Assembly: GCA_038877255.1 (NCBI GenBank)
Contig: JAVYWZ010000013.1
Span: 1 to 22,044, forward strand
Reading direction: 5' to 3'
Source of the DNA: Candidatus Micrarchaeaceae archaeon
Lineage (GTDB): Archaea; Micrarchaeota; Micrarchaeia; Micrarchaeales; CABMGC01
Length of the DNA: 22,044 nucleotides
Part shown: positions 16,764 to 19,958 of the stretch, piece by piece
Layout: every line of letters begins with the position of its first letter
Numbering within the stretch: the stretch's first letter is position 1
Notes under the pieces: model-generated
The model's database searches: none
Told to the model about the DNA's origin: nothing
What the model saw: the letters and a program-made list of their open reading frames with translations, nothing else
Position numbers and translations under genes: made by a program

Positions 16764-18494
16764 TCACCTCTTGAAGATTTTAAGCAAATTTTGCAAATCA
16801 TACGTGTTTATTATGTCTTCCTTGGTAAGCCAGCCTCTCCTTGCTGTGCCAATGCCATAACGCATAAACTCAAGGTGCTGTGTTCTGTGCGAGTCCGTTC
16901 CTATCTCAAATTTAACCTTATATTTTCTTGCCTTCAGTATGTTCTCATCATTCAGGTCCAGCCTGTTCGGGAAGGAATTTATCTCAAGTACAACGTTGTT
17001 TGCCTCTGCGGCTTCAAAAACCTTGTCAAGGTCTAGCTGTATAGGCTCGCGTTCGTTTATGAGCCTGTCTGTAGGGTGTGCAAGCACATTAATGTGCGCA
17101 CTTTCAATAGCTTTTACTACTCTTGCAGTCATCTCATCTTTGCCCATGTTTATGCTTGTGTGCACTGCCCCTATTACATAATCCATTTCCTCAAGGGTCT
17201 TGTCCTTCAAGTCGAGCGAACCATCTTTCAAAATATCAACTTCGCCGCTCTTGAGCACACGAATCCTGCCTTCGTACTTATCATTAATCGCATCGACCTC
17301 TCTGAACATTTTCTCGAAGCCAGCGTCGTCCATGCCCCTTGCTATATGCTCGCTTTTTGAATGATCTGAATTGCCAATGTACTTTCTGCCGAGTTTAACT
17401 GCTTCTGATACCATCTCGTCAAGCGTATTTGCGCCGTCGCTATGGTTCGTATGCGTATGCAAATCCCCTTTTATATCTCCAAGCTCAACAAGCTTTGGAA
17501 CCTTATGCTCTAGCGCGAGCTCAACTTCGCCGCGGTCTTCGCGCATCTCAGGCTCCACGTACTGCAAGCCAAGCTTTTTGTATATCTCGCTTTCATCTTC
17601 GCCTGCAACTACGTTATTGTTGCTCTTGTTGAAAAGACCGTACTCGTTAAGCTTGTAGCCCTTCTTTATTGCTATCTCCCTTAACTTTATGTTGTGATTC
17701 TTACTGCCTATGAAATACTGCATTGCAGCACCAAAACTTTCTGGCTCTATTACCCTGAAATCGCAGCTCAGACCAATTTTAAGCCATACTGTTGTCTTTG
17801 TAGGCCCCTTTACTATTACATGCTCTGTTTCTTGCATCTTTGTAACGAAGTCCATAACCGCATCTGCTTTCTTTGAGATGAGCAATATGTCAAGATCACC
17901 AACTGTTTCGCGCATTCTTCGCGTTGAGCCGCACAATTCTGCACGTTCTACAAGACCCGATTCCTTAAGCTTCCTTATAAGTATCTCTGCCTCTGGCAGA
18001 GCTGCGCCAAGAAGCATGCGTCCCTTGCTCTCTTCAAGCAGGGCTATTCCCTTTGAAAGCTCTTCCTCGCTGCGCTCACCAAAGCCTTCGAGATTGCGTA
18101 TCCTGTGCTGCCCTATCGCCTTTTTCAAATCGTCAATGTTTTTAACTCCAAGCAACTGGTAAAGTTTTAAGGCCTTTTTTGCGCCCATGCCTTGTATCTT
18201 CGTAAGACCTGCGAAATCTATAGGAAACTTTCTTTTGAGCTCGTCATATTTCTTTATTTTGCCTGTCTTGAAATATTCAGCAAGCCTCTCTGCTATAGTC
18301 TTGCCCACACCTTGCAGCTTGAGCAGACCATCAATACCCTCTTTTTCATAAATCTCGCGCACGTCCTGCTGCAAGGTGCCTATCGTGAGTGCTGCTTTTC
18401 TATAAGCAAGCGGCTCGAACCGATTAGACTTAGGATCGAGTTCTAACATGTCAGCGATTTCTTCGAATATCTCTGCAATCTTTGAGTTGTCCAC
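16764..18494 (-). CDS. polX: DNA polymerase X family / PHP-domain protein
   Basis: HhH motifs (GVGK, GMGAK), GSTRR...GDLDIL, CDFR, YFIGSKNHN, LNEYGLF. PHP motifs DLHTHT..SDG, SDHS, AHPT, GTDSH. Likely GTG start MDNSKIA. Confidence 0.95.
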   Translation of the reverse strand: MDNSKIAEIFEEIADMLELDPKSNRFEPLAYRKAALTIGTLQQDVREIYEKEGIDGLLKLQGVGKTIAERLAEYFKTGKIKKYDELKRKFPIDFAGLTKIQGMGAKKALKLYQLLGVKNIDDLKKAIGQHRIRNLEGFGERSEEELSKGIALLEESKGRMLLGAALPEAEILIRKLKESGLVERAELCGSTRRMRETVGDLDILLISKKADAVMDFVTKMQETEHVIVKGPTKTTVWLKIGLSCDFRVIEPESFGAAMQYFIGSKNHNIKLREIAIKKGYKLNEYGLFNKSNNNVVAGEDESEIYKKLGLQYVEPEMREDRGEVELALEHKVPKLVELGDIKGDLHTHTNHSDGANTLDEMVSEAVKLGRKYIGNSDHSKSEHIARGMDDAGFEKMFREVDAINDKYEGRIRVLKSGEVDILKDGSLDLKDKTLEEMDYVIGAVHTSINMGKDEMTARVVKAIESAHINVLAHPTDRLINEREPIQLDLDKVFEAAEANNVVLEINSFPNRLDLNDENILKARKYKVKFEIGTDSHRTQHLEFMRYGIGTARRGWLTKEDIINTYDLQNLLKIFKR

Positions 18495-18543
18495 AATAAT
18501 AATAGCATGTTGCAAGCTTAAAATGTTTTGTTAGCGGAAAAGA

Positions 18544-18654
18544 AACGCTGTCCCTTAAACGCAGGTGCAAAAGCTAGTGCGTTGGCGTTGAAGCGAGAAG
18601 CTCAAAACAAGCAGATGTGGCGTAAGCTAAGTCTGTAATAGCTTAGTAGTTCAC
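18544..18654 (+). ncRNA. Structured IS200/IS605 right-end / omega-RNA-like element, family B copy B1
   Basis: Nested stems AACGCT/GGCGTT and AACGCA/TGCGTT, then GAAGCGAGAAG, AAGCT/AGCTT enclosing CAGAT/GTCTG and TGGC-GTAA-GCTA, ending GTAGTTCAC. Two other partial copies in the window. Confidence 0.55.
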
Positions 18655-18748
18655 CGCAGACGCGCTGCTAAATGGATTTGCAATAAGCGAAACAAACTTA
18701 TTTATTCTTTAACGCCTAATTAGAATTTGGCGACTAGTTGGTAATTTA

Positions 18749-19825
18749 ATGGCTGGAGAAGTAAACTCACCCGATGACGAGGAGCTTCTGAAGTTTATAG
18801 AGGCTGCTAGGCCAAAAATATACATATTTGGGGCCGGCGGCAGCGGATCTAACACCATAACGCGCATGTATGAAACTAACATAGAAGGCGCGACGCTTGT
18901 TGCTGCAAACACAGATGCGCATCATTTAGCAATTACAAAATCGCACAGGAAGATACTTTTAGGCAAAAAGACAACAAAAGGTCTTGGTGCTGGTAGCGAT
19001 CCAAAGTTAGGCGAGGACGCGGCACTTGAAAGCAAAGAGGAGATAAGGCACATGCTGAGCGATGCACAGCTTGTTTTTGTCACATGCGGGCTTGGCGGCG
19101 GCACAGGCACAGGCGCTGCGCCAATACTGGCGCATGAAGCGAAAGAAGCGGGAGCGCTCACTATAGGCATAGTTACACTGCCATTTTCGAGTGAAGGCAG
19201 ACTCAGAATGCACAACGCACTTGAAGGTCTTTCAAAACTGAAACGTGCAACTGATACTACAATAATAATACCAAACGACAAGCTGTTGGGCATAGCGCCA
19301 GACCTGCCTCTTAACATGGCGTTCAGGGTGAGCGACGAAGTTCTTTCGAATGCTACAAAAGGCATAGTAGAGATGGTTACAAAACCCGGCATGGTCAACC
19401 TCGACTTTGCAGATTTAAGGAGCGTAATCAAGGATTCTGGTTATTCAGTAATAGGCATGGGCGAGAGCAATGGTGCAGATACCAAGGATAGGGCAATAAT
19501 TGCTGTTGAGAATACGCTCAAAAGCCCTCTGCTCGATGTAGACACTACAACTGCAAAGCGCGCGCTAGTTAACATAATCGGAGGCCAGGACCTCACACTG
19601 CGCGAAGCAGAAAGCATATTTCAGGAAGTGGCAAGCAGGATAAGCGATGATGCATTACTCAAATGGGGCGCGAGAATTGAACCTGAGATGCAGAAGAACG
19701 CGCTAAAGGTAATGGTAGTAATGGGCGGCGTGGAATATGCTGAATATACGGAAGACGGCATAAAGAAAAAAACTGAGAAAAGCGCAGGCGAAGGAGAGGA
19801 CCTTGACAAAGTATTTGGGGACTAG
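18749..19825 (+). CDS. ftsZ: Cell division protein FtsZ
   Basis: GAGGSGSN, ANTD, GLGAG, GLGGGTGTG signature, NDKL, NLDFAD T7 loop. Confidence 0.97.
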   Translation: MAGEVNSPDDEELLKFIEAARPKIYIFGAGGSGSNTITRMYETNIEGATLVAANTDAHHLAITKSHRKILLGKKTTKGLGAGSDPKLGEDAALESKEEIRHMLSDAQLVFVTCGLGGGTGTGAAPILAHEAKEAGALTIGIVTLPFSSEGRLRMHNALEGLSKLKRATDTTIIIPNDKLLGIAPDLPLNMAFRVSDEVLSNATKGIVEMVTKPGMVNLDFADLRSVIKDSGYSVIGMGESNGADTKDRAIIAVENTLKSPLLDVDTTTAKRALVNIIGGQDLTLREAESIFQEVASRISDDALLKWGARIEPEMQKNALKVMVVMGGVEYAEYTEDGIKKKTEKSAGEGEDLDKVFGD

Positions 19826-19875
19826 TGGAACTGCAACAATTTTAGACTTGGCTTTTGCTACATCTTTTGTTTGAG
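19825..19875 (-). repeat. Family B remnant, copy B2
   Basis: Minus strand CTCAAACAAAAGATGTAGCAAAAGCCAAGTCT...GCAGTTCCAC aligns with CTCAAAACAAGCAGATGTGGCGTAAGCTAAGTCT...GTAGTTCAC (18601-18654). Confidence 0.55.
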
Positions 19876-19958
19876 GCGGCTGGCTCTCTAGCCACAAGAT
19901 ACCAAGAACTGTGCGCATACGCAAAAAGCTTTATTAAGCAAAAATACAAAACCAAATC

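Follow-up and report, generated by a model that had tools for sequence, protein, structure and literature searches.

A probably defunct, PATE-like remnant of an IS1341-type tnpB element in the polX-ftsZ spacer of a Micrarchaeaceae archaeon

We analysed a stretch of 22,044 nt (the window), which is contig C13 of a draft genome of a Candidatus Micrarchaeaceae archaeon (G000; 713 kb, 30 contigs, 92% complete), for which the best-matching sequencing run is a hot-spring metagenome. Here polX and ftsZ are divergently oriented, with starts at 18494 (-) and 18749 (+). The 254-nt spacer between them contains an element of at most 112 nt without any transposase or nuclease gene. A first-pass annotation had described it as an orphan omega-RNA-like structure, representing either a decayed right end or a stand-alone guide RNA acting in trans, and had correctly noted that no tnpB gene is adjacent. 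The locus is organized as follows:

16764..18494 (-): polX, family X polymerase with PHP domain (Pfam PF14791, PF02811, PF14716), the divergent neighbour, GTG start at 18494
18514..18535 (-): probable polX promoter, host sequence; 22 nt identical in the genus relative G002
18543..18578 (+): degenerate 5' segment, placed by the covariance model on model positions 1-37
18549..18569 (+): stem-1-like helix, 6/8 pairs retained in the model register; loop AAACG against GGAAC in the family
18579..18654 (+): core of the right end, conserved in the IS1341-type tnpB family and forming the 3' part of its omega-RNA scaffold; 76 nt, 93.4% identity to two siblings
18611..18636 (+): hairpin with GTAA loop (18622-18625), mutually exclusive with the terminal hairpin; counterpart helix in the family consensus (RNAalifold columns 140-148 with 169-174)
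18626..18647 (+): subterminal hairpin of the right end (stem 4), 7/9 pairs; GTAA loop at 18635-18638
18650..18654 (+): TTCAC, 3' end of the element and common 3' end of the family
18655..18674 (+): nominal guide, host flank; pairs with 18572-18586 and is colinear with the G002 spacer
18697..18751 (+): AT-rich block of the ftsZ promoter/leader, conserved and alignable in G001, G002, G004 and G005
18749..19825 (+): ftsZ (Pfam PF00091, PF12327)

Since the 22 nt at 18514-18535 (-) recur exactly in G002, we assign them to host promoter DNA. They include a TATA-like TTTTAA (18523-18518, -), 29 nt from the polX GTG and preceded by an A-rich BRE-like stretch, and going by the archaeal consensus we take them to be the polX promoter. 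Downstream of the element, the ftsZ promoter/leader block is undamaged. No plus-strand gene reads into the element, and the sole candidate TATA box upstream of it is that of polX, the BRE-like side of which points to polX; these motifs presumably act as a promoter. A scan for sigma-70 promoters and terminators, which is unfit for an archaeon, was uninformative. The element matched no family in an Rfam scan of 17500-19500 at E <= 10.

A whole-genome search by iterated nhmmer returned 21 right-end matches at E <= 1e-3, including the window copy. The element is therefore not an orphan at the genome level, but one of 21 such ends with a TnpB-coding parent. Of these, sixteen terminate with TTCAC and three with a variant of this motif; the other two are truncated. 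The sequences beyond are unrelated, with the exception of one pair (C7 and C2:31161), and this agrees with the 3' boundary that had been placed at TCAC. The copies of this pair (C7:41452 and C2:31160) have an identical 3' flank past TTCAC, either because the flank was duplicated together with the element or because the assembly is faulty at the end of a contig. The parent, C7:40012-41451 (1.44 kb), consists of a left end, a stop-free gene for a TnpB of 446 aa (40127-41443, L007; PF01385, PF07282) and a right end, the core of which overlaps the final tnpB codons. The window copy matches the C7 tnpB end with 80.6% identity over 98 nt (E 1.9e-18).

A left-end profile seeded from seven copies identified the matching end 1439 nt upstream of the C7 right end. 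Left ends were also found 58-260 nt upstream of twelve other right ends (two of them weak), and some left ends stand alone. Such lone ends, together with gene-less derivatives of about 58-260 nt that have both ends, indicate that internal deletion is routine in this family. TTAA directly precedes 11 of the 13 listed left ends and is likely the target motif. The same profile gave no match in 18501-18600 of the window, and the TTAA near the window copy defines no left boundary. By eye GTTAGCGGAAAA in the 5' segment is similar to a left end, but it was rejected on account of the negative profile result; moreover, its first six bases also occur in G002 host DNA. Neither a Y1 TnpA (PF01797) nor a serine recombinase (PF00239) was found in the 92% complete assembly. 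We classify the family as IS200/IS605, IS1341-type, with many gene-less derivatives.

The genome encodes two long PF07282 proteins, on C7 and C27. At the position that we take to be the RuvC-II motif, the C7 TnpB has Q (AYQND) where the C27 protein has E (AIENL), so that judged from its sequence the C7 site may be rearranged or inactive. Record titles of relatives of the C7 TnpB name Micrarchaeota, Nitrososphaeria, Parvarchaeota and Thermoplasmata; a search of viral contigs with this protein gave one weak locus. At C2:21049 (-) (L131) a left and a right end are fused within 100 nt, and the 3' flank there appears by eye to be the reverse strand of a tRNA gene. A second family of mini-elements is present at 2836 (-) and 1657 (-) of the window, with 14 matches genome-wide. 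Its left end starts GTGAGCGG, after TATAAAA, and one copy precedes a 140-aa, internally deleted tnpB ORF (HTH_OrfB_IS605 and PF07282).

For a covariance model (CM) of the scaffold, right ends were gathered from 37 TnpB loci and from 200 genomes of the order, of which 16 gave a match. Among 48 distinct candidates, 23 full-length ends were kept; we dropped ends that lacked a real stem 1, as well as short variants from a single bin that hardly differed from each other. The resulting family scaffold has 178 nt. Its 5' helix, stem 1, covaries, with two-sided changes in 4 of 8 pairs. Covariation among homologs, which the first-pass annotation had proposed to look for, thus exists, but outside the nested stems it had described. 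Stem 4 is 85% paired and has two pairs with two-sided change. An upstream CTCGC is the partner of GCGAG, which is located inside what had been called a linker; this helix is 99% paired and shows no two-sided change. The whole proposed structure outscores 500 of 500 shuffles for paired cells plus covariation, a value that is not a probability because the sequences are related. The stem-1 loop GGAAC is complementary to the terminal GTTC, again without two-sided change. The pseudoknot claimed earlier, TGAA (18589-18592) with TTCA (18650-18653), is formed by complementary letters, but shows no two-sided change in the 23 family sequences. As neither candidate covaries, the choice of partner rests on the analogy to ISDra2, which leads us to favour the stem-1 loop over TGAA.

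The model matches the window copy at 18543-18654 with 56.9 bits (E 1.5e-13) and 65 model positions deleted. Together with the 21 family matches, this confirms the proposed homology to a tnpB 3' end, that is, to an IS605-type right end. Siblings without stem 1 score 54.6-62.7 bits, and full-scaffold copies 116-207 bits (six of these eight were in the training set). In the model register the window copy retains 6/8 pairs of stem 1, 4/5 of stem 2 and 7/9 of stem 4. The pseudoknot loop reads AAACG and keeps 1/4 pairs in register, or 3/4 if shifted by one. The next match in the window reaches only 8.6 bits (E 0.34) and lies right after ftsZ, at 19826-19932 (-); it is probably due to chance and possibly a much older remnant.

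Two gene-less mini-elements of this genome, C6:39335-39559 (+) and C9:26193-25931 (-) (L125, L127), combine a left end with a near-complete scaffold, for which the model, trained on both, gives 116 and 150 bits. A TTTATA box precedes the scaffold by 33 nt, and the elements end in TTAAC and TTCGC. Judged by these features, they would be far better candidates for stand-alone omega-RNA genes than the window copy. Further natural minimal forms occur in relatives (L081 and L097 in G033, L082 in G021), in which the left end is joined directly to the right-end core (about 120 nt) or stem 1 is joined to the core (109 nt, 89 bits).

The two siblings closest to 18579-18654 are C5:40400-40475 and C1:87468-87543 of the same genome. 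TGAAGCGAGAAG begins at 18589 and GTAGTTCAC finishes at 18654. The part that is certainly derived from the element is 18585-18654, whereas 18579-18584 could be host sequence as well. The segment 18543-18578 most likely represents the stem-1/stem-2 domain of the family, which the loss of about 65 nt brought next to the core, and may in part be host sequence. Its profile score is 11.3 bits, a value that one shuffle in 1000 and six genomic 46-mers in 2000 also reach; seven copies in which the stem-1 region is clear score 34-56 bits. MAFFT groups it best with the C6 and C9 mini-elements. It also resembles the tnpB tail (6/1000 shuffles), and stem 1 alone gives 8/1000. The left boundary of the element thus falls between about 18543 and 18585, according to tests that were chosen post hoc.

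Placing this boundary at its inner limit leads to a rather unlikely variant, in which only some 70 nt (18585-18654) derive from the element and were dropped into a host palindrome by a one-ended or recombinational event. Everything 5' of 18585, the nested stems included, would then be host spacer. This would account for the sharp drop in identity to the siblings, and the two flanks do form an imperfect inverted repeat. Moreover, the global fit to the G002 spacer is best when 18585-18654 is excised, in which case a block of 30 nt spans the junction, and the anchored left arm (18570-18584) matches that spacer at 12 of 15 positions (12/2000 shuffles; 45-109/2000 at other lengths). But the whole-spacer shuffle test is not significant (50/400), all of the boundary tests, for and against, were picked after inspection of the sequence, and 18543-18578 would have to resemble the 5' domain of the family by chance (1/1000 shuffles), a resemblance missing from the spacers of G001, G002 and G004 (62, 73 and 17 of 200, respectively). 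In any case, this variant alters the boundary of the element and leaves the verdict reached below as it is.

The nested stems of the first-pass annotation can be formed on paper, AACGCT (18544-18549) with GGCGTT (18584-18589) and AACGCA (18558-18563) with TGCGTT (18578-18583). However, they do not stand as scaffold structure, since the fold is no better than that of shuffled sequences and the covarying helix of the family is a different one. The fold of 18544-18655 has a z of -0.80 (44/200 shuffles equally stable), and the nested part, 18544-18589, a z of -0.79 (58/300). The terminal hairpin at 18622-18648 alone stands out (z -2.2, 7/300). If 20 nt of 3' flank are added, the pair probability of both nested stems drops to 0.0, because 18572-18586 pairs with 18655-18668 instead. 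The long GTAA hairpin (18611-18636) is present and has its counterpart in the family, but this counterpart competes with the terminal hairpin.

Five other genomes of the genus were available for comparison. In three of them polX is adjacent to ftsZ, and none of these three has a right end in the orthologous spacer. The genus relatives are too diverged to place the exact insertion junction. In G002 (L010), about 100 additional nt lie between the polX promoter and the polX start; by eye they are similar to a mini-element of the second family on the polX strand. The polX-ftsZ spacer thus seems to have been struck independently in this sister species. Among the contigs of sequencing runs X1-X3, no joint skipping the element was found; the X1 contigs listed do not cover 18576-18585. 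In one X1 contig, the core and the ftsZ flank are preceded on the 5' side by sequence of the C1/C5/C15 type. Because the C1 copy has 34 exact nt in common with the window copy, this contig is ambiguous: it may represent a longer allele or a chimera created in the assembly graph. Pattern scans of the metagenome for other alleles gave no match, and then one with an apparently unrelated flank.

The nominal guide is colinear with its counterpart in the G002 spacer. Its duplex with 18572-18586 has -20.7 kcal/mol (89/2000 shuffles), and guide nt 1-12 have a predicted mean unpaired probability of 0.11, compared to 0.27-0.50 in three other copies. There is no second match to the guide within the window, as had been stated. 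In its own genome, the best match is 13/16 without TTAA, and the best TAA-flanked match 9/16. Among the 120 exact viral 14-mer matches listed, none exceeds 15 contiguous nt or has TAA/TTA upstream. With one mismatch, the guide 14-mer matches 66 of 118 related genomes at scattered places, which we take as chance. We conclude that the guide is mere host DNA beside the insertion point, as in every copy.

Sharing the right-end core and the common 3' end of its family, lacking a left end and part of the scaffold, and occurring in this lineage specifically, the window copy is very probably a dead or dying, non-autonomous, PATE-like remnant of an IS200/IS605 tnpB element of the IS1341 type. As far as its sequence allows us to judge, it most likely sits between the two promoters as harmless ballast and does not work as a guide RNA. 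Of the two options offered by the first-pass annotation, the decayed right end holds, given the right-end homology, the missing left end and the incomplete scaffold. The stand-alone guide is unlikely, given that no TAM-flanked target, no conservation and no left end were found and that the guide is predicted to be sequestered.

Such a remnant could have arisen if a family element entered the polX-ftsZ spacer by TnpA-type single-strand transposition in trans. The insertion would have been tolerated because both divergent promoters stayed intact. Left end and middle would later have been lost by microhomology deletions, followed by drift, and the copy would have no present function. This insertion route is our inference: no TnpA was found in the assembly, and no TTAA of the family stands at a demonstrable left boundary. 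With its left end absent, the copy cannot be excised as a unit, and the damaged stem-1 loop together with a guide that is not free would make TnpB loading unlikely.

Several observations speak against the remnant reading. Most pairs of stems 1, 2 and 4 are kept in the model register, and a plus-strand CTTAAA at 18517 lies 25-26 nt before the model start at 18543. One stem of the ISDra2 omega-RNA (reRNA) is dispensable, according to a passage of PMC10097598, and the region deleted from the window copy would, by analogy, include its equivalent. Finally, the 3' core is 93% identical to the siblings and the 5' part far more diverged, a pattern that uniform decay fails to explain.

The retained helices and the TATA-like hexamer 25-26 nt before the model start would also fit a working, trimmed omega-RNA that belongs to a selfish mini-element. 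The polX TATA box, used in reverse, would drive its transcription, the TnpB of the family would take it up in trans, and its target would be this very site on an allele without the element, for homing or retention. Action of stand-alone omega-RNAs in trans is described in parts of PMC10691335 and PMC10055086, and a full-length tnpB of the family is encoded in the same genome. We nevertheless regard such a guide as improbable. Its GGAAC loop is mutated, with 1/4 pseudoknot pairs in register, and the predicted fold leaves the guide engaged in pairing. The BRE-like stretch is on that side of the TATA box which faces polX, and the element-free junction that fits best lacks a TTAA ahead of the guide. 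The parent TnpB has Q at the putative RuvC-II position, which its sequence suggests might impair it.

It is very improbable that the copy is a naturally minimized omega-RNA of 112 nt (about two thirds of the scaffold), made from the reverse face of the polX TATA box and served by TnpB in trans, the guide of which is masked by fold-back until the protein binds and which acts on the polX-ftsZ promoters of element-free chromosomes. If true, a minimized omega-RNA would be a selfish guide tied to a cell-division promoter in a tiny archaeon. If the trimmed copy worked at all, it would represent a natural minimal guide scaffold. A domesticated stand-alone guide RNA for a binding-only (TldR-like) TnpB or a Cas12f-like protein, with a host gene, a partner cell or a virus as target, can hardly be credited: it would suit the position between two housekeeping promoters, the non-canonical RuvC-II residue and the presence of two long PF07282 ORFs, but the site is not conserved in 3/3 comparable relatives, the best own-genome match is the one of 13/16 without TTAA, the 120 viral matches listed include no TAA/TTA-flanked target, and the parent TnpB is still flanked by transposon ends. 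An origin from a Cas12f tracrRNA or CRISPR locus was set aside once the tnpB parent turned up.

In its vicinity to host promoters, the TnpB-type guide scaffold of the window copy is comparable to guides of TldR or domesticated TnpB, but no conserved locus, target or immobilized, end-less TnpB was found here. In the solved RNA of ISDra2 from Deinococcus radiodurans, as a section of PMC10097598 describes, the terminal bases pair with -103 to -105 and not with the nearer predicted partner. Our family appears to correspond to this RNA in the complementarity of the 5' stem loop to the 3' terminus, in a stem 2 that closes shortly before the 3' part and in the terminal hairpin before the guide. It differs from the 116-nt ISDra2 RNA of that section by its length of about 178 nt, an extra segment before the terminal hairpin and the end TTCAC, and in the window copy the loop is mutated as well.

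Our literature search, supplementary tables aside, found no description of this IS1341-type family. As a by-product, our analysis yielded a scaffold of 178 nt, backed by covariation, for a TnpB family of archaea that has a likely TTAA target motif and carries Q at the RuvC-II position. The accounts cited here already describe both stand-alone omega-RNAs and IS605 derivatives without a gene, and the window copy is among the more damaged copies in its genome. PMC10691335 describes, in part, stand-alone omega-RNAs and clades with rearranged RuvC-II, and portions of PMC10055086 report that PATE-like elements exist beside tnpB elements of ISGst in Geobacillus stearothermophilus and are acted on in trans. 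Like these, the window copy has a right-end scaffold away from tnpB, with a cognate tnpB elsewhere. However, the ISGst elements in these reports keep both ends, expression was observed for the omega-RNAs of several transposons, and action in trans is reported for stand-alone ones, whereas the scaffold in the window is deleted and mutated and known from its sequence.

The closest parallel concerns the PATEs and core-deleted IS605/IS1341-type elements described in Haloquadratum walsbyi (in passages of PMC3119063). A complete PATE keeps both ends, unlike the window copy with no detectable left end. In common with the PATEs described there, the window copy is gene-less, has a near-terminal palindrome and shows no terminal inverted repeats, its boundary is similar to that of a tnpB-coding IS605-type parent, and it belongs to a set of heterogeneous copies formed by internal deletion.
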